Position numbers and translations under genes: made by a program. 64,000 nucleotides of DNA, from assembly GCA_947479085.1 (NCBI GenBank), contig CANJYB010000007.1, positions 72,432-136,431 of the forward strand, in the 5' to 3' direction. Every line of letters begins with the position of its first letter. Positions within the stretch are counted from its first letter, which is position 1. The DNA is from Bacteroidota bacterium. GTDB lineage: Bacteria > Bacteroidota > Bacteroidia > 2-12-FULL-35-15. The notes under the pieces were generated by a model. The model saw only the letters and a program-made list of their open reading frames with translations. It was not told the origin of the DNA and did no database searches. This document shows, piece by piece, positions 1 through 43,960 of this stretch.

Positions 1-1662
1 AGTAGAAAAATCGCCTAACATCAACGCTCCTTGATGCAAATTAGAAGAAACGTTAGAACCAATAGCAGTTGAATTTACTCCGCTAGCAGTGGTAGTGTAT
101 CCCATAGCCGTTGAATAATTTCCTGATGCAGTAGTAGTATAACCTACCGCAGTGGAATAACTACCGCTTGCAAGGTTAGAACCTCCCATAGCAGTAGAAG
201 AAAGTCCGCTGGCAACGCAGTTACTTCCCATGGCAGTGGAATTGATTCCGCTAGCTACTGTATTTGCTCCCATAGCGGTTGCGCTGTTCTGGGTTGCAGA
301 GGTAGTATTTCCCAAAGCAGTTGAATAATCTCCATTGGCAGTGGTACCAAAACCCAATGCAAATGAACTGATTCCTCCGGAAGTATTGGAAGTTCCGATA
401 GCTACAGAACCAACTCCTGTGGCATTGGATAAATTACCCAAGGCAATGGTATTGGTACCACTTGCTTTAGTGGTGTTGCCCATTGCCACCGAGTAATTGC
501 CAATGTTTGCATCATCCCATTGCGTTCCTCCAACAAAACCACTTCTGAACGCAGCCTTTTTAGGATAAAAAATCATCCTGGTTCCGGAACCATTTGTTAA
601 CAGATTGTTTCCGGATAAAAAAGTTCCTTTTGCAATAATACCTCCGTCCACATCAACAGATAATTTGAACTCAGGTAATACAGTTCCTATTCCAATGTTA
701 GTTGCATTGTTATATAAATTGCTGGTTGCAGTCCAGGCTGAACCGTTATAATAAAGTGTTTGTCCGGTTATTCCTCCTGCAATAACAGTTCCTGCAGTTC
801 CGGTAGCTCCGGTAGCACCATTTGTTCCATTTGTTCCGTTAGTTCCGTTACCACCGGTAGCGCCCGTAGCTCCATTGTTTCCATTGGCTCCGTTAAGACC
901 ATTTGAACCTGCTAAGCCGGTAGCACCTGTAGCACCTGTAGCGCCATTTATTCCATCATTACCATCAGTCCCTGCTATTCCAGCAGAACCAGTGGCACCG
1001 GTAGCACCTATTGCCCCATTTGTTCCATTTAATCCATTACTTCCGTTTACTCCATTGGTTCCTGAAGCGCCTGTTGCGCCTGTAGCACCTGTTGCTCCAT
1101 CTGTACCGTTTGTTCCGTTCACCCCATTCACCCCATTATTTCCGGCAACACCTGTTGCTCCTGTTGCCCCGGTTGCACCATCATTTCCATTTATTCCATT
1201 TGTCCCATTTGCACCGTTAGCTCCTGTCGCTCCGGTTGCACCTGCAGCACCTGCTGTCCCACTTGATTGTGCATATAATGCATAAGGCACACTCATTAGT
1301 TGTTGGGTACCCATTAAAGCATAACTTGTCCCACCGGTAACATCCATAGAAACTTCAATATAATAAGGTCCATTTGCCCAATTGATGGTATTGAAAGTTC
1401 CTGATTGAACAGTTCCTGTTCCAACTACCACATTTACCAATCCGATATTGTTGGAAGTAACATTAAATGTTTCCATATAAACACTGGTTCCACCCGCGCT
1501 TCCCTGCAAGATATTTATTTGCAAGCCAATATTCTGGCTGGTAATAGCTACCCCTAAGGAAGTTCTGGCTACAGCCTGGTAATTGAAACCCTGGGGTGCC
1601 TGTGCTTGTATTGATTGAGATAAAAGAAGGCAAAGGAAAAGAAGGAAAGTAATTTTTTTCAT
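1..1662 (-). CDS. collagen-like triple-helix repeat surface protein with N-terminal signal peptide; 3' end lies outside the window
   Basis: Minus-strand ATG at 1660-1662 gives MKKITFLLFLCLLLSQSIQAQ... The reverse complement of the ggtgctaca-type triplets reads Gly-Ala/Asn-Thr collagen G-X-Y repeats (about 65 triplets). Further downstream are Ser/Ala/Gly-rich NSTA(M/I)G-type repeats resembling Hep_Hag/YadA-head or tail-fibre repeats. The plus-strand ORF 875..1285 (PVAPVAP) is the antisense image of these repeats. Confidence 0.7.
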   Translation of the reverse strand, partial: MKKITFLLFLCLLLSQSIQAQAPQGFNYQAVARTSLGVAITSQNIGLQINILQGSAGGTSVYMETFNVTSNNIGLVNVVVGTGTVQSGTFNTINWANGPYYIEVSMDVTGGTSYALMGTQQLMSVPYALYAQSSGTAGAAGATGATGANGANGTNGINGNDGATGATGATGVAGNNGVNGVNGTNGTDGATGATGATGASGTNGVNGSNGLNGTNGAIGATGATGSAGIAGTDGNDGINGATGATGATGLAGSNGLNGANGNNGATGATGGNGTNGTNGTNGATGATGTAGTVIAGGITGQTLYYNGSAWTATSNLYNNATNIGIGTVLPEFKLSVDVDGGIIAKGTFLSGNNLLTNGSGTRMIFYPKKAAFRSGFVGGTQWDDANIGNYSVAMGNTTKASGTNTIALGNLSNATGVGSVAIGTSNTSGGISSFALGFGTTANGDYSTALGNTTSATQNSATAMGANTVASGINSTAMGSNCVASGLSSTAMGGSNLASGSYSTAVGYTTTASGNYSTAMGYTTTASGVNSTAIGSNVSSNLHQGALMLGDFST

Positions 1663-3610: not shown

Positions 3611-3627
3611 AACCCGAGGAAAGCAGA

Positions 3628-3850
3628 AATAGGCCGGTCGTTTCGGCCAATAGGCCGGAACTTGATTCAAATAGGCCGGAACCTTTCCAAAATAGGCCGG
3701 AACTTGAACCAAATAGGCCGGAACTTGATTCAAATAGGCCGGAGTTTCTCCCAAATAGGCCGGAACCTTTCCAAAATAGGCCGGAACTTCTCCAAAACAG
3801 GTCGGAAGCTCTCTCGAATAGGCCGGTCGTTTCGGCCAATAGGCCGGAGC
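3628..3850. repeat. tandem repeat array, about 22 bp period, core AATAGGCCGGAAC plus about 9 variable nt, roughly 10 copies; both ends carry the motif ATAGGCCGGTCGTTTCGGCCAATAGGCCGGA
   Basis: Seen directly in the sequence. It fills the whole spacer between the convergent stop codons at 3610 and 3879. The ORF-track entries 3566..3754, 3597..3839 and 3662..3868 are translations of the repeat. Confidence 0.85.
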
Positions 3851-10496: not shown

Positions 10497-10592
10497 ATTC
10501 CCATTCTTTCTTAAACCGCTTTCAGTCTTTTGTAGTTTTTCTCCTTCAAAAAATCCTTTTACAGCGTAAATTCTTGATTTAAATCTATTTCC

Positions 10593-11130
10593 TTTTTCGG
10601 AAATAGGGTTCCGAACCTTCGGAATAGGGTTTACTTTTTCGGAAACAGGGTTCCGAATCTTCGGAATAGGGTTTACTTTTTCGGAAATAGGATTCCGAAC
10701 CTTCGGAATAGGGTTTACTTTTTCGGAAATAGGGTTCCGAATCTTCGGAATAGGGTTTACTTTTTCGGAAATAGGGTTTCACTTTTTCGGGAAAAGAATT
10801 CCGACCGTTAGGAATGGCATTCACTTTTTCGGGAAAAGAATTCCGACCGTTAGGAATGGCATTCACTTTTTCGGGAAATGAATTCCGACTGTTCGGAATG
10901 GCATTCACTTTTTTGGGAAATGAATTCCGACTGTTCGGAATGGCATTCACTTTTTCGGGAAAAGAATTCCGACCGTTCGGAATGGCATTCACTTTTTCGG
11001 GAAATTAATTCCGACTGTTCGGAATGGCATTCTCTTTTTCGGGAAAAGAATTCCGACCGTTCGGAATGGCATTCACTTTTTCGGGAAATGAATTCCGACT
11101 GTTCGGAATAGCATTCACTTTTTTGGGAAC
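10593..11130. repeat. tandem repeat array with 42 bp period and two unit subfamilies. Family A (about 4.5 copies): TTTTTCGGAAATAGGGTTCCGAACCTTCGGAATAGGGTTTAC. Family B (about 8 copies): TTTTTCGGGAAAAGAATTCCGACCGTTCGGAATGGCATTCAC. Each unit contains an inverted repeat (TTCCGAAccTTCGGAA or ATTCCGAccgtTCGGAAT)
   Basis: Seen directly. The array fills the spacer between folA (ends 10496) and the convergent gene ending at 11154. The ORF-track entries 10585..10992, 10814..11008, 10850..11221 and 10878..11111 are translations of the repeats (42 = 14 codons). Confidence 0.85.
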
Positions 11131-12230: not shown

Positions 12231-12292
12231 TGCTTTTTGGTTTTATTGATTTGATTATTATTTACTGCTTTATTTATTTTATTAATAAAATT

Positions 12293-14221
12293 CTATTTTT
12301 GTTTATTGGGCTGATTAAAATATACAGCAAGCCCAGCCTGGTAATTAAATAAAGGCATGGCCCTGTAAGCAAGCACCTGATAGGTTTCTTCCCAAACATT
12401 ATTTAACTGAACAAATACCTTTATTTTTGATGTATTCAATAAAAAAGTTTGGCCGATGTTGATATTCCCAATTGCATAAGGCTTTAAATACTCTAAATTA
12501 TCAGATGACGTATAACGGTACCCGGTATAAACATGAGTATAACTTACCACAGTTCCTTTCCATGAAACGGTAATATTGCCTTGCGCATTTTGAATGGGCA
12601 CGTATATCAATTGTTTGTTTAATGAAGCATCATTTGCAGTTGCCGCTTTCTCATTGGTTGATAAAACATAATTATACATACCCGAAAGTTGCACTTTAAA
12701 TTTCCGAACAGAATAGCTCAAATTCAATTTATACTCCACTCCCCTGGACCATACCTGTAGAACGTTTTCGGGAGTCCATATATTATAGTTATTAGGCAAC
12801 CAAATAATCCAGTTGTCTATGTTTCTGTTAAAAACAGTACCTCCCAGTTCCCAGGAAAAGCCTTTATAATGATGTTTATGTATCAGACTTAGTTCTTCGC
12901 TCCAGCCGCTTTCTGCCTTCAAATCCGGATTACCTCCTTGTCCCCAATACAGTTCGTTTAGGGTAGGCAGATGATAATGCTCTGCAACATTTGCTTTTAC
13001 AATAAAATATTTCAACACCTTTACATCTATACCCAATGAAGGGGTAAAGGGAATGGTCTTGCTTTTAATAAACTCCTGCCGGCCACTGATAACAGCATTC
13101 CAGTTATTGTTTTTAGAATGCAGTTTGTAACTCGCAAACAGCGAAACTCTGTTTTGGGTTGGATTTACAATGTAATCAGAAGTATCAATGGCTTCTGAAT
13201 AGGTATTGTTAATACCAATATTTACCAAATCGAATTTAGTAATGCTGAACCGTGCTTCAGCTTCTGCAATGGTTACTTTTGTTCTGCTTCGGGCATCAAG
13301 GTGAATAATGGAATCCACATAACGTAAACCTTCATCAAAATAAGCAATGCGGGCAAGTATGGTTAATTTGTCCCCTGTTCGCTGCCATTCCGTTGTTGCC
13401 CGGTACAGTTCATCTTTCTGATTGGCTGCATTTATGTTTTGAGTCATGGAAGGCGGAATATTTCTATTGTTGAACTGGTACCAGAAACGGGTGTTTATTT
13501 TTTGATGAGCATTTATCTGAAAATAATTTTCCTGTAATAACCCATATTCTTTTAATTCCGCATTACTTTGTTGCTGTTCCCGGTTACCATACTGAGCGGA
13601 ATTAATAAAGGGGAAGTTATTTTTAGCATCATGGTTAAATAGTTTGAGGGAAGAAACAACTCTTTTTTTGCTGATTTCTACTCCCGCTTGCTGGCGCATA
13701 TCGCCAAAACTGCCAAAGGAAGTACTCATGGAAACAGAAGTGCCCCTGTTAAACCTGCCTGAATTATTCATGAGTATAGTGCCTCCAACAGCACCGCTTC
13801 CCCATAAAGCACCTGCGCCACCGTATTGAAGGTTTACTTCATTCACAAAATCAGAAGGAATAAGCGATAAATCAATCTGCCCGTTCATGGGGCTTTGCAG
13901 GTTGAAACCGTTCCACAATACCGAAGTATGTTCCGCCCCCGCTCCTCTGAACGAACTGCTAGCGAGACTGCCTAAGCCGTAGGATTTTATAAATAACTGG
14001 CTTTCGCTGGTAAGCACCTCTGCAAGATTGCCTGCAGAATATCGGTCTAGGAGAGAACTATCAAGGGTTTCGCTTTTGTTGCCAATGGCAAAATTACCCG
14101 ACCTGGAGGTTGTTATTTCAACCACTTTTAATTGTTTAACAGAGTCTCCAACCGTTTGAGTAAACCCCGAAACAGTTAATGACAAAAGAGAAACACTAAA
14201 AAATAATTTAAACAGATTCAT
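12293..14221 (-). CDS. btuB: TonB-dependent outer-membrane receptor, BtuB-like (vitamin B12/cobalamin family)
   Basis: 642 aa with signal peptide and an N-terminal plug domain (…VVEITTSRSG…, …GAEHTSVLWNGFNLQSPMNG…). A cobalamin riboswitch lies in the 5' leader. Confidence 0.75.
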   Translation of the reverse strand: MNLFKLFFSVSLLSLTVSGFTQTVGDSVKQLKVVEITTSRSGNFAIGNKSETLDSSLLDRYSAGNLAEVLTSESQLFIKSYGLGSLASSSFRGAGAEHTSVLWNGFNLQSPMNGQIDLSLIPSDFVNEVNLQYGGAGALWGSGAVGGTILMNNSGRFNRGTSVSMSTSFGSFGDMRQQAGVEISKKRVVSSLKLFNHDAKNNFPFINSAQYGNREQQQSNAELKEYGLLQENYFQINAHQKINTRFWYQFNNRNIPPSMTQNINAANQKDELYRATTEWQRTGDKLTILARIAYFDEGLRYVDSIIHLDARSRTKVTIAEAEARFSITKFDLVNIGINNTYSEAIDTSDYIVNPTQNRVSLFASYKLHSKNNNWNAVISGRQEFIKSKTIPFTPSLGIDVKVLKYFIVKANVAEHYHLPTLNELYWGQGGNPDLKAESGWSEELSLIHKHHYKGFSWELGGTVFNRNIDNWIIWLPNNYNIWTPENVLQVWSRGVEYKLNLSYSVRKFKVQLSGMYNYVLSTNEKAATANDASLNKQLIYVPIQNAQGNITVSWKGTVVSYTHVYTGYRYTSSDNLEYLKPYAIGNINIGQTFLLNTSKIKVFVQLNNVWEETYQVLAYRAMPLFNYQAGLAVYFNQPNKQK

Positions 14222-14334
14222 TATAAATGATTAAAGCATAAGCTAAATCAATTATAACAAACGGTAAAACAGTAAGGATAGAAAAATGAAAACAGTTTAT
14301 CTATTCTTAGCCTTTTCTCCGAAAGCTATAAATG

Positions 14335-14640
14335 TTGAAGCAACAGGCAGGTCTTCTGACTCGTTCCGGTTTTTAACGCCTTCCCGTCTTTTTTAGTTTC
14401 AAGTTTGAAAGTTTAAAGTTTCAAGTTGAAGAACTAAGTAATAAAACAGTGGCAAAGAATGTTAAAAATGTTATCAATAAAAAATTCAGGTAACAGTTTC
14501 AGGTAATACAACCTAAAACTTGAAACTTTAGAACTTTAAACTGATAAAGAACTTACAGCATCGGGAAATGTCCTGGATTTACACCTGGTTCCCTATTAAA
14601 CCTTCTGTTTATGGAAGGTACCTGATTGCGAAGCAAAAGT
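14335..14640 (-). promoter_or_regulatory. cobalamin (B12) riboswitch in the btuB leader, with an unusually large internal insertion
   Basis: Minus-strand read: …caatcaGGTACCttccataaacagaaggtttAATAGGGAAccaGGTGtaAAtCCaggACatttCCCGatgCTGTAag… followed, about 200 nt downstream, by the B12 box cgAGTCAGAAGACCTGCCtgttgc. These match the conserved GGUnCC / AnnGGGAA / GGUGnAAnUCC / CCCGCnACUGU / AGYCAGnnnACCUGCC cores. A long inverted repeat of gtttcaagtt/aacttgaaac-type sequence separates the cores. Confidence 0.65.
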
Positions 14641-14701
14641 AGCATTTCTTTTTAATTGGTTACTGTTAAATTGTTTATTTAAAGGTAGTACCTTTACCAA
14701 A

Positions 14702-15220
14702 ATGAAAATTATAGCCTACAATAAACCAAACGCGATAATCTGCACCACCGAAAAGATTACCGGTAACATTATCGAAGCAATTAATCACCCTGAAAAGCTA
14801 TTACCGGTTGGCAGATTGGATAAAGACTCTGAAGGATTAATTCTACTAACAGATACAGGTAGTATCATCAATAGAATAATACATCCTGAATTTGAGCATG
14901 AAAAAGAATATATAGTAACATTAAATCTTCCGTTACGAAATCAGTTTTTGAAAGAAATGGCAAAAGGAGTTGATATAGGGGATGTTATTACCAAACCTTG
15001 CTTAATAAAACCTGAACCAGGGACAAGAAGAGTATTTCGAATTGTTTTAAAACAAGGCTTAAACCGGCAGATCAGGCGAATGTGCAATGCACTGGGTTAC
15101 CAGGTAATAAAACTGGAAAGGGTAAGGATAATGAATATAAAGTTAGGGAAACTAAAACCGGGAGAGTGGAGGGAATTAAACGAAGAAGAAAAGAATAGTC
15201 TGATATCTCAACTGGTGTAA
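14702..15220 (+). CDS. pseudouridine synthase, RsuA/RluB/RluF family catalytic domain (no S4 domain)
   Basis: 172 aa; …LPVGRLDKDSEGLILLTDTGSIINRI…EKEYIVTL… contains the catalytic Asp motif of the RsuA family. Confidence 0.8.
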   Translation: MKIIAYNKPNAIICTTEKITGNIIEAINHPEKLLPVGRLDKDSEGLILLTDTGSIINRIIHPEFEHEKEYIVTLNLPLRNQFLKEMAKGVDIGDVITKPCLIKPEPGTRRVFRIVLKQGLNRQIRRMCNALGYQVIKLERVRIMNIKLGKLKPGEWRELNEEEKNSLISQLV

Positions 15221-15277: not shown

Positions 15278-16234
15278 TTAGAAGTGGAAAGTCACTCTTA
15301 AAGAAGCTGTTCCTGTGTTAGAACCTTTGAAACCAAACATGTTTCCTTGGTTTAAATCAGTATCAATTCCTAATTTTGAATTACCTTCAGTTTTTCTTTC
15401 TACAGTTCCAACAATGTTGTTACCACTTGCATCAAGACCTTGTTCTTCAGTAGTTTTACTTCCTTTTCCGGTCATTTGGTAACCTAATCCCCAACCATAC
15501 TCAGCACCAACAGCAATTTTTGGGAAGATGAAGTATTCAGCACCGATAAAACCACGAATACCAATTCCTAAAGTCATTCCTGATTTTTGTTGAGTCATAC
15601 GCTTTGATAACGGAGAACTAGTTCCAGTTCCAAAATTTCCACTTGTTGGATCAGTATCCCAAGTTGTAGAAAGTGGAGTAGAAGTTTGAGTTACTGAAGT
15701 AGGGTTACCAGTCATAGTGTTACCATAAGTCATTTTGTCTTTTGAACTCGCCATCCAAATCATAACATCAGCTCCGTAAAAACCTTGTAAACGGGTTTTT
15801 CCTCTTCTCCATTCTTTACCAGCACCGATAGCGATGTTAGTTGTTGAATGTTTGTACTTATCAGTTACCATTGCCGGTATTGATGGGAAAATAACAGTAG
15901 ATAAATCCTGTGCATCATCCTGAACACTGTTTTTGAAAGTTTGGTTAGTAAATCCAAGACGAACTAACACTCTATAAGCTGTTTTTTCATCAATGAATTT
16001 TTTACCAATGATAGTTTGGTTTCCATTTAACCATTCTACTGCAGGGGCTTGATTTGTATTTGTAGCTCCGCTGAATGCATTACCAACGAATCGGAAAATA
16101 GGGTCAGCGTTTAAGCTGATAGCCCAATCATTTGCTTCCGGCAACATTGGTTCACCTTTTTTAGAGGTTAAATCCTGAGCAAAAGCAGAGGTTATACCAG
16201 CTGCTAAAGCAATTACTAATACTGATTTTTTCAT
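15278..16234 (-). CDS. outer-membrane beta-barrel protein (porin-like), function unknown
   Basis: 318 aa; signal peptide MKKSVLVIALAAGITSAFAQ, alternating amphipathic strands, and a C-terminal …RVTFHF aromatic terminus. Confidence 0.55.
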   Translation of the reverse strand: MKKSVLVIALAAGITSAFAQDLTSKKGEPMLPEANDWAISLNADPIFRFVGNAFSGATNTNQAPAVEWLNGNQTIIGKKFIDEKTAYRVLVRLGFTNQTFKNSVQDDAQDLSTVIFPSIPAMVTDKYKHSTTNIAIGAGKEWRRGKTRLQGFYGADVMIWMASSKDKMTYGNTMTGNPTSVTQTSTPLSTTWDTDPTSGNFGTGTSSPLSKRMTQQKSGMTLGIGIRGFIGAEYFIFPKIAVGAEYGWGLGYQMTGKGSKTTEEQGLDASGNNIVGTVERKTEGNSKLGIDTDLNQGNMFGFKGSNTGTASLRVTFHF

Positions 16235-31231: not shown

Positions 31232-31483
31232 GCATTAGTTTATTTGTTCTCCCTGTTAGTTTATTTGTTCGTACTGTTAGTTTATTTGTTCTCCCTGTTA
31301 ATTTATTTGCACGCACTGTTAGTTTATTTGTTGTCCCTGTTAGTTTATCTTCACTCACTGTTAGTTTATTTGTTCTCCCTGTTAGTTTATCTGCACGCAC
31401 TGTTAGTTTATTTGGTCTCCCTGTTAGTTTATTTGCAAGCACTTTCAATATATGGGATAGCCGCGTTAGTTTATCTGTTCGCC
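31232..31483. repeat. tandem repeat array, 21 bp period (CTGTTAGTTTATTTGTTCTCC and variants), about 12 copies
   Basis: Seen directly; lies between convergent porP/sprF and pntB. The ORF-track entries 31209..31448 and 31211..31525 are repeat translations. Confidence 0.85.
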
Positions 31484-43758: not shown

Positions 43759-43839
43759 GCCAAAAAATGATGCTGCTTTTATGTAAGAGATAGCCCTATT
43801 AAGATATGAAGTACAATAAAGTTATATAAAATGGATAAA

Positions 43840-43960
43840 TCAATTATATAAAACATATAAGTTTATTATATAAAACATATAAGTTTATTATATAAAATGA
43901 CTAACACTATTATATAAAGCATATAAGTTTATTATATAAAATAATTAATTAATATAAATG
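43840..43960. repeat. AT-rich imperfect tandem repeat (about 26 bp unit, CATATAAGTTTATTATATAAAA, 3 copies) in an 840 bp gene-poor spacer
   Basis: Seen directly. Confidence 0.5.

Follow-up and report, generated by a model that had tools for sequence, protein, structure and literature searches.

The 480-nt non-coding stretch analysed here separates a pseudouridine-synthase gene from a gene for a TonB-dependent receptor, the two being divergently oriented, within a 64-kb stretch of DNA of a Bacteroidota bacterium (the whole of which is called the window below). The receptor gene, similar to btuB, is separated by 62 nt from a btuG-like gene for a lipoprotein of the DUF5074 family, and both genes are full length. 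The features of the locus are listed in Table 1.

Table 1. Features of the btuB-btuG locus and its leader (positions are those of the window)
Feature	Position	Strand	Remark
Pseudouridine-synthase gene	14702-15220	+	Divergent neighbour of the receptor gene
TACTTTTG, candidate Bacteroidota -7 promoter box (TAnnTTTG)	14634-14641	-	Directly 5' of the aptamer
Cobalamin riboswitch aptamer, Cbl-I architecture (P2 stem-loop and large P6 extension), 312 nt	14329-14640	-	RF00174, 60 bits
h1, 77-nt stand-alone hairpin	14471-14547	-	Site 1: 5' side, internal loop between the GUUC/GAAC and UUUUAAC/GUUAAAA helices
Heptamer array (AAAGUUY) x3.7	14516-14542	-	5' arm of h1; inside arm 14509-14550
Conserved mid-core UUUUUAACAUUCUUUGCCACUG, 22 nt	14447-14468	-	Between h1 and h2; 5' strand of the next helix and GCCACUG motif
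h2, 61-nt terminal-loop extension of the GCCACUG...GGGAAGGC hairpin	14386-14446	-	Site 2; 13-18 nt in short orthologues
Heptamer array (AAACUUK) x4.6	14395-14427	-	In h2; inside arm 14387-14428
3' core GGGAAGGCGUUAAAAACCGGAACG	14346-14385	-	Includes the B12 box AGUCAGAAGACCUGCC at 14346-14361
P13-like hairpin UAGCUUUCGGAGAAAAGGCUA	14308-14328	-	Loop CGGAG complementary to L5 (UUCCCG); candidate kissing-loop partner
Proposed start-codon helix GUUUGUUAUAA.UUGAUU...AAUCA.UUAUAAUGAAU	14216-14262	-	Encloses AUG 14219-14221; small variable hairpin inside
btuB-like TonB-dependent receptor, 642 aa	12293-14221	-	Plug domain and BtuB structure matches
btuG-like seven-bladed propeller lipoprotein (DUF5074), 358 aa	11154-12230	-	PF16819 at 2.2e-27
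42-bp tandem array	10588-11129		Beyond the btuG-like gene; then convergent folA/thyA

The receptor matched the BtuB2/BtuB3 chains of Bacteroides thetaiotaomicron in the PDB (8bmx_C, E = 2.7e-58; 8p98_A, annotated as 'Vitamin B12 transporter BtuB', E = 6.5e-57), and the lipoprotein matched the BtuG2/BtuG3 entries with E values from 8.6e-44 (8p97_B) to 1e-42; the entries matched by the two proteins are BtuBG complexes of that bacterium (PMC10404256). The locus holds a BtuB-homologous TonB-dependent receptor adjoining a seven-bladed propeller of the BtuG type, i.e., a BtuB-BtuG pair of the Bacteroides type, and this homology supports the role in B12 uptake that the original prediction, made from the letters alone, had assigned to the two proteins. 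The best family match of the receptor was TIGR01779, at 71 bits (cut-off 600), and it was not recognised as a curated BtuB equivalog (TIGR01779 or NF007926); we take these models to represent proteobacterial BtuB, so that the low score says only that the receptor is not that orthologue. The N-terminus of the BtuG-like protein (MKKNKLIYASILAFSITISGCKKDD) has a lipobox (...ITISGC) whose cysteine is followed by KKDD, presumably the known Bacteroidota lipoprotein export signal, and on this basis the protein is predicted to be a lipoprotein that reaches the cell surface.

Downstream of btuB-btuG, the locus was found to have neither btuFCD nor btuH nor any further accessory gene, in keeping with the earlier observation that btuF and btuCD do not follow and that the 42-bp array adjoins the pair. 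Since the array and the convergent folA and thyA genes come after btuG, the operon consists of btuB-btuG alone, a minimal two genes. It resembles the btuB-btuG loci of B. thetaiotaomicron (PMC10404256, PMC6143338) in having BtuB followed by the BtuG propeller and a cobalamin riboswitch in front, and differs from them in its minimal makeup, in its origin from an uncultured environmental member of the Bacteroidota, and in a receptor scoring below the BtuB equivalog cut-offs. The contig was also found in several metagenomes from the environment, among them ENA ERZ27263779 (contig k141_1650918), and the relatives recognised by their receptor were all uncultured Bacteroidota genomes.

An Rfam scan of the whole window gave one match above threshold, to the cobalamin riboswitch family RF00174 (60.0 bits versus a gathering score of 31.5; E = 2.4e-12), which covered model positions 1-189 of 189 and was not truncated. 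The riboswitch cores that had been proposed on the minus strand were indeed found there, and they fell into this single full-length match, neither scoring below the threshold nor being divided between separate matches. The aptamer is in the sense orientation, its 3' end lying 107 nt before the start codon of the btuB-like gene. At its other end stands TACTTTTG, which, from the established knowledge of Bacteroides promoters, we take to be a candidate promoter box; the position reads TACATTTG in nearly all of the listed orthologues (in L018, ACATTTG at the start of the match).

The junction motifs GGGAA..GGUG..CCCG..CUGUAA are present in the correct order and are followed by the B12 box AGUCAGAAGACCUGCC, and the P2 hairpin ACCUUCC...GGAAGGU and a P6 extension with GCCACUG/GGGAAGGC are present as well. 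Judged by these elements, the aptamer core is intact, with all the conserved motifs, the P2 stem, and the B12 box kept, and the leader is a genuine, ordinary cobalamin riboswitch of the btuB-btuG operon. Two elements distinguish the Cbl-I class (PMC7367189), namely a P2 stem-loop placed between P1 and P3, and a P6 extension of elaborate build (P7-P11) with conserved residues; the window aptamer has both, and its ligand is predicted to be of the adenosylcobalamin (Cbl-I) type. Relative to the RF00174 Cbl-I riboswitches of the Escherichia coli btuB leader and of T. tengcongensis (PDB 4GMA), it shares the full-length match, the placement of P2, the four-way junction, the B12 box, the P6 extension with GCCACUG and GGGAAGGC, a candidate L5-L13 kissing pair, and the position upstream of btuB. 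It differs in length (312 versus ~190 nt), two of its peripheral hairpins being expanded by 72 and 45 nt, largely in 7-nt units, and in having no Shine-Dalgarno-based platform, a start-codon helix being proposed instead.

From the B12 box to the start codon, the leader had a highly conserved sequence among the orthologues and measured 124-144 nt among the 27 leaders for which an annotated start was found. An invariant hairpin in it, AGCUUUCGGAGAAAAGGC, has a loop that can pair with L5 and is the candidate P13/L13, and AGCUUUCGGAGAAAA(G/A)GC is invariant in the listed orthologous leaders. Between L5 and the CGGAG loop, 3-4 pairs are possible and neither side varies, which leaves no covariation to count; the kissing contact itself is taken from the known architecture of the family (PMC7367189). 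Two mutually exclusive helices share the GUUGC/GUUAU strand (alignment columns 113-120). In the start-codon helix, 93% of the cells were paired on 20 orthologues, versus 27-49% in slid registers; in the alternative helix, in which the strand pairs with GUAGC/AUAGC just 3' of P1, the figure was 95% versus 22-68%, with a G-C to A-U change at one pair in 4 sequences. The covariation of the platform helices was weak, 28-30 of 500 shuffles reaching the observed score. When folded without constraints, the window leader kept the start-codon helix, and the ON state was not seen in silico.

The minus strand of the leader was searched for terminator-like sites and had none, and we thus propose, with modest support, a ligand-dependent sequestration of the AUG. 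The ligand would stabilise the L5-L13 kissing interaction and thereby lock the P13-like hairpin; the GUUAU(AA) strand (14252-14258) would then pair with the start-codon region and not with AUAGC just 3' of P1, and the AUG, enclosed in the start-codon helix, would be unavailable for the initiation of translation. The btuBG loci of B. thetaiotaomicron are riboswitch controlled and are repressed in B12-replete medium (PMC10404256), and by analogy the riboswitch described here most likely shuts btuB-btuG off when B12 is plentiful.

The original prediction had read the wide separation of the cores as a single insertion of about 200 nt. There is extra sequence, but it amounts to ~118 nt only and comes in two pieces, with the conserved mid-core UUUUUAACAUUCUUUGCCACUG, which had gone unrecognised, between them. 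The spacing from CUGUAAG to AGUCAG is 191 nt in the window and is ~73 nt already in short orthologues; CUGUAA and GCCACU are 99 nt apart (25-32 nt in short orthologues), and GCCACU and GGGAAGG are 62 nt apart (13-18 nt). From these spacings, the pieces are put at about +72 and +45 nt, and both map to the P6 extension and not between the domains, the two locations that the prediction had left to be told apart. The order of the peripheral elements is CUGUAA - GUUC - (site 1) - UUUUAAC AUUC UUU GCCACUG - (site 2) - GGGAAGGC GUUAAAA .. GAAC - B12 box, in which GUUC pairs with GAAC and UUUUAAC with GUUAAAA, and GCCACUG...GGGAAGGC closes a hairpin. In the first two of these extension helices, the changes among 13 short members seem, by eye and uncounted, to preserve pairing (GUUC/GAAC versus GCUC/GAGU; UUUUAAC/GUUAAAA versus GUGU/ACAC).

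The two sites were located by comparing the sequences of short and long orthologues, with a clade covariance model built from 13 short orthologues, and also via the Rfam alignments of the orthologous loci L025, L011, and L018. Because the RNAalifold consensus omitted the P6-P8 pairs, the window was split into two matches to the clade model, which still served for mapping the sites. The first match (14479-14633, model positions 1-182) had matched letters only up to about position 98, with everything beyond it skipped or unmatched, and the second (14351-14473, model positions 88-164) followed in the right order. The mid-core UUUUUAACAUUCUUUGCCACUG aligned to model positions 88-114, and the loop of the GCCACUG hairpin comprised 47 nt in the window versus 2 in the model. 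At site 1, the orthologues L006, L007, L009, L014, and L029 have a short CUUUCCGAAAGGAAA hairpin of 14-16 nt. The unusual length of the aptamer (312 nt versus ~192) is accounted for by two variable insertions, independent of each other, at sites where the P6 extension is permissive.

Variable insertions in riboswitches have been described as non-conserved, stable stem-loops at tolerated sites that leave the core intact (PMC2258182, Barrick & Breaker 2007). Likewise, h1 and h2 lie at tolerated sites, form stem-loops of their own, and are absent from relatives, with the core intact and the covariance-model score lowered. They differ from the insertions described there in being microsatellite-like (period 7), in that the two are mutually complementary, and in their fast turnover between close relatives.

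Orthologous loci were collected via the receptor protein, 80 from reference genomes, 80 from metagenomes, and a few more by exact look-up, to give 164 loci; the closest relative, P0002 (receptor 79% identical), was left out of the leader comparison, there being no DNA on file. All of the first 20 loci scanned turned out to have an RF00174 riboswitch at an equal distance from btuB. Thirteen of these leaders were 190-199 nt long and scored 88-112 bits, L008 and L010 had 216 nt, and L005, L016, L018, L019, and L023 had 276-297 nt and scored 52-78 bits. Over 108 distinct leaders, the median length was 28.5 nt for segment 1 and 18 nt for segment 2; segment 1 exceeded 60 nt in 21 of the 108 and segment 2 exceeded 30 nt in 22 (a few of the segment 2 counts being parsing artefacts), with both long in 12. 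When the receptors were placed in a neighbour-joining tree, the long and the short leaders were intermingled: L030, which is short at both sites, nests within a group of long ones, and a short leader is found also in L168, whose receptor is 71% identical. Four metagenome contigs from the organism of the window carried identical inserts. From this patchy distribution and the identity of the four contigs, we conclude that the family can do without the inserts and that these turn over from one species to another, and yet are not visibly hypervariable within this population. We infer that they are neutral. The identity of h1 between the window and L005 (77%) is about the same as that of the core (75%), and the total length of h1 stays at 87-105 nt in the clade; such conservation and steady length could mean that h1 is under selection rather than neutral.

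A tandem repeat was detected in 25 of 40 long inserts, nearly always with a period of 7 and with units that are unrelated across lineages, and in relatives the spacer between btuB and btuG is filled with heptamer arrays, too. In the background, period 7 makes up 70 of 496 arrays. An AGTTTAA array is present also in h1 of L005, L023, L028, L042, L086, L090, L132, and L166, the last having 7 units where L005 has about 4. The window h2 is homologous to the h2 of relatives (unit AWUCYUG), the numbers of units differing and being higher in the window, and its ending GAAACUAAAA is common to L018.

The recurrence of period-7 arrays with unrelated units at the same two sites in unrelated lineages, the heptamers in the btuB-btuG spacer, and the kept length of h1 in the clade would agree with the inserts being functional add-ons, whether as a platform for a multimeric protein on phased NAG-N4 repeats (L019 reads UAG-N4-UAG-N4-UAG), as an RNase III or RNase E site setting the half-life of the leader, or as a delay element between the aptamer halves. 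However, the close relatives L030, L168, and L011 do without them, the units have no motif in common, no candidate protein was identified, and a period of 7 is common in the background too, so that we consider such roles unlikely.

The two long complementary blocks noted before were recovered within a few bases of where they had been placed, as arms of 42 nt (14387-14428 and 14509-14550) that are 81% complementary, with 36 of 42 positions pairable, around an 80-nt spacer. The arm-to-arm duplex reached -32.8 kcal/mol, versus -13.3 +/- 3.1 kcal/mol for shuffles (z -6.3), and thus exceeds chance. In the 23 other long-insert leaders the corresponding z ranged from -2.5 to +1.7, two of them lying at -2.0 to -2.5, and the strong complementarity of h1 and h2 is peculiar to the window's lineage among the 24 long-insert orthologues.

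The duplex strength (-31 to -33 kcal/mol) and a weak local fold of h2 (-12.0 kcal/mol, z -1.3), by which the best partner of h2 on sequence is the h1 arm, favour the view that the blocks pair in one long peripheral stem or alternative conformer that is part of the working of the riboswitch. When the complete aptamer was folded, however, the minimum-energy structure (-74.6 kcal/mol, z -3.1) kept the Rfam core with h1 and h2 as separate hairpins, h1 alone folding at -25.1 kcal/mol (z -5.4). When the arms were forced to pair, the energy rose to -66.7 kcal/mol, 7.9 kcal/mol worse, and conserved helices were broken: the stem loops out the conserved UUUUAACAUUCUUUGCCACUG and disrupts its pairing with GGGAAGGCGUUAAAA. 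In the ensemble, each of the pairs between the two arms had a probability of ~0, and h1 was folded at transcript lengths of 200 and 255 nt, i.e., before or as h2 emerges. None of the 23 other long-insert orthologues came close to such a stem, and we judge a working role for the block pairing to be very unlikely.

An RNAalifold consensus of h1 over 12 orthologues contained no pairs because the arms are out of register in the alignment, and the folding of h1 was therefore assessed per sequence. In these thermodynamic models, which leave out tertiary contacts and proteins, h1 and h2 are predicted to fold locally rather than with each other. The extended peripheral stem that had been envisaged is not supported, the blocks belonging to different hairpins around the strand that pairs with GGGAAGGCGUUAAAA, and we do not think that their complementarity is a helix used by the RNA, but regard it as a by-product. 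As candidates, both the single 200-nt insertion and the extended stem were rejected in view of the orthologue comparison, the forced-pair folding, and the ensemble probabilities.

According to the reading that we favour, h1 and h2 would have grown where they now stand, for the most part as tandem units of 7 nt expanded, each hairpin folding on itself. The other suggestion of the original prediction, an inserted repeat, holds insofar as repeats are present, and fails in that they are not one inserted element, growth at two permissive sites accounting for them. That the two arrays are mutually reverse-complementary is unlikely by pure chance, and some mutational or selective link is needed. The complementarity could stem from related hairpin motifs (5' arm AGUUN, 3' arm NAACU), from homogenisation by slippage, or from template switching. 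On the simplest reading of the sequences, a unit containing AAACU, whose complement is the h1-arm motif, may have expanded in place; a possible alternative origin would be template switching at a quasi-palindrome or homogenisation. That the h1 arm had been duplicated, in inverted orientation, to give h2 was considered from the reverse-complement matches of the window h2 to relatives' h1 arms (blastn-short; 91% over 34 nt to L042); the h2 alignment shows homology to the h2 of relatives instead.

A more far-reaching proposal is that the heptamer hairpins form a module that has arisen repeatedly, by independent evolution, among the btuB riboswitches of the Bacteroidota. The units at the two sites and in the btuB-btuG spacer would then bind a multimeric RNA-binding factor, or else slippage and the h1/h2 complementarity would give a competing fold that heritably tunes the closure of the aptamer and would thus make the riboswitch 'slippage-tunable'. 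We regard this proposal as quite improbable.

Transcribed foldback repeats, such as the Correia elements of Neisseria and the REP and ERIC sequences of enterobacteria, are known to form long hairpins in non-coding RNA. An inverted repeat around an 80-nt spacer, as found here, could suggest that the riboswitch was hit by a mobile element bounded by terminal inverted repeats, either a MITE-like foldback or what remains of an insertion sequence, and the near-perfect, foldback-like hairpins of ~50 bp at the corresponding site in the distant relatives L142, L143, and L145 look similar to such elements. The 'spacer', however, is an essential conserved segment of the aptamer, so that there are two insertions and not one; orthologues show graded numbers of units at the same sites; and no target-site duplication is evident. 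No further copies of h1 or h2 were found outside the site, either in the 64-kb window (33-mer search with 3 mismatches) or in the window and the 164 loci (blastn-short), the only extra blastn-short matches being those of the window h2 reverse complement to relatives' h1 arms. The multiple copies, non-essential interior, and target-site duplication of a MITE were thus not seen in the window and the fetched loci. In contrast to Correia, REP, and ERIC sequences, the inserts have no multi-copy distribution or terminal-repeat and target-duplication signature, and those of the window are imperfect and grown from tandem units; a mobile origin is highly improbable. Hardly credible, too, is a decaying riboswitch, its aptamer disabled by the insertions and its operon constitutive or silent: the Rfam score of 60 bits, versus ~100-112 bits in short orthologues, invites that thought, but penalties for insertions and local ends account for the drop, the motifs, P2 stem, and B12 box are intact, neither gene is truncated, the expression platform has been conserved, and long forms persist across several lineages.

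Taken as a whole, the 5' end of the btuB-btuG transcript is likely to carry an adenosylcobalamin riboswitch of the Cbl-I class with two variable insertions that arose in place. For annotation, this gives a btuB-btuG operon, predicted to be B12-regulated, in the genome of an uncultured member of the Bacteroidota. The two variable insertions explain the halved covariance-model score, and automated pipelines could mis-call or truncate such matches. Should the inserts prove to have a function, the locus would offer a rare instance of riboswitch tuning by a microsatellite, although none of the observations calls for it. For the evolution of riboswitches, about one-fifth of the 108 related leaders carry long, fast-turnover hairpins at the two sites, most of them made of 7-nt units, and these sites tolerate from 0 to >100 nt.

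Tandem repeats, as detected with TRF, occupied 25 of the 40 long inserts, the expanded segments at either of the two insert positions (sites 1 and 2) in the P6 extension of the cobalamin aptamer, among the 108 distinct orthologous leaders (loci L005-L168). All but three rows of these repeats had a period of 7, a period found in 70 of the 496 tandem arrays of the background formed by the window and all the loci, and the heptamer units showed no relation between lineages. An AGTTTAA array (4.7 copies), as in the inserts at site 1 of the type carried by the window (h1), was also encountered within the receptor coding region of a distant relative; there it encodes a beta-strand-like K/F/V repeat and is probably coincidental. 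Heptamers also made up the btuB-btuG spacers of several relatives, with the arrays (AATTGAT)5(ACTAACA)7, (AATAACC)20, and (CTAATAA)7.6; the 62-nt spacer of the window is A-rich and non-repetitive.

Long hairpins were found in three distant relatives with receptors 36 to 37% identical (L142, L145, and L143) and in L076, and their arms were composed of 7- to 9-nt units. The site 1 hairpins were perfect in L142 and L145 and near-perfect in L143, with folding energies of -83 and -70 kcal/mol. The order of the units differed between L142 and L143, but the two arms were altered in concert. Given their length, these three duplexes would be expected to be RNase III substrates.

The leader between the aptamer and the start codon (124 to 144 nt in the leaders compared) was conserved to a degree approaching that of the aptamer, among loci whose receptors were only 57 to 72% identical. 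In these leaders CUUUCGGAGAAAAG was invariant, while the GAAUAGA...UCUAUCC hairpin had a variable loop and, in L086, an additional nested hairpin.

Elsewhere in the window, the 318-aa open reading frame, which had no Pfam or NCBIfam match, was kept adjoining the locus in ENA and Logan contigs. The source genome seems unusually rich in tandem arrays of the 21/42-bp type. The nested repeats suggest a triplet-repeat protein encoded on one strand, possibly a collagen-like or fiber protein.

Coordinates of the repeats, hairpins, and neighboring features
Feature	Locus	Position	Details
Spacer heptamer array	L023	4430-4519	makes up btuB-btuG spacer
Spacer heptamer array	L022	4474-4614	same
Spacer heptamer array	L015	4431-4484	same
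Spacer heptamer array	L166	2927-2957	same
Spacer heptamer array	L063	4567-4597	same
btuB-btuG spacer	window	12231-12292	
AGTTTAA array	L033	3938-3970	
Hairpin, site 1	L142	975-1169	~50 bp; marine metagenome
Hairpin, site 1	L145	310-504	~50 bp; marine metagenome
Hairpin, site 1	L143	339-528	~50 bp; marine metagenome
Hairpin, site 2	L076	2127-2289	80 nt
Aptamer-to-start leader	window	14222-14328	
42-bp array	window	10588-11129	4.5 copies (94%) and 8.4 copies (93%) in its two sub-families
Equivalent array	L016	5903-6213	42 bp x7.4; unit similar to window's
Equivalent array	L018	5730-6096	21 bp x17.5
318-aa ORF	window	15278-16234 (-)	between pseudouridine-synthase and GH92 glycosidase genes
21/42-bp (and 22-bp) arrays	window	149-242, 3627-3848, 31235-31443, 43822-43941	units unrelated
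Nested repeats	window	796-1210	9, 18, 45, and 81 bp; units include GTAGCACCT, CCATTTATT

The 42-bp array of the window begins 25 nt downstream of the stop codon of the btuG-like gene, and every unit carries the palindrome ATTCCGAAC-GG-TCGGAAT. Several of its reading frames are open on each strand, and gene calling on the ENA contig placed a 121-aa gene there. Arrays occupy the corresponding position in L016 and L018, and in the L016 array the palindrome is preserved relative to the window unit by changes on both arms. Together with its counterparts in relatives, the array looks like a conserved non-coding hairpin array, possibly the 3' UTR of the btuB-btuG operon.
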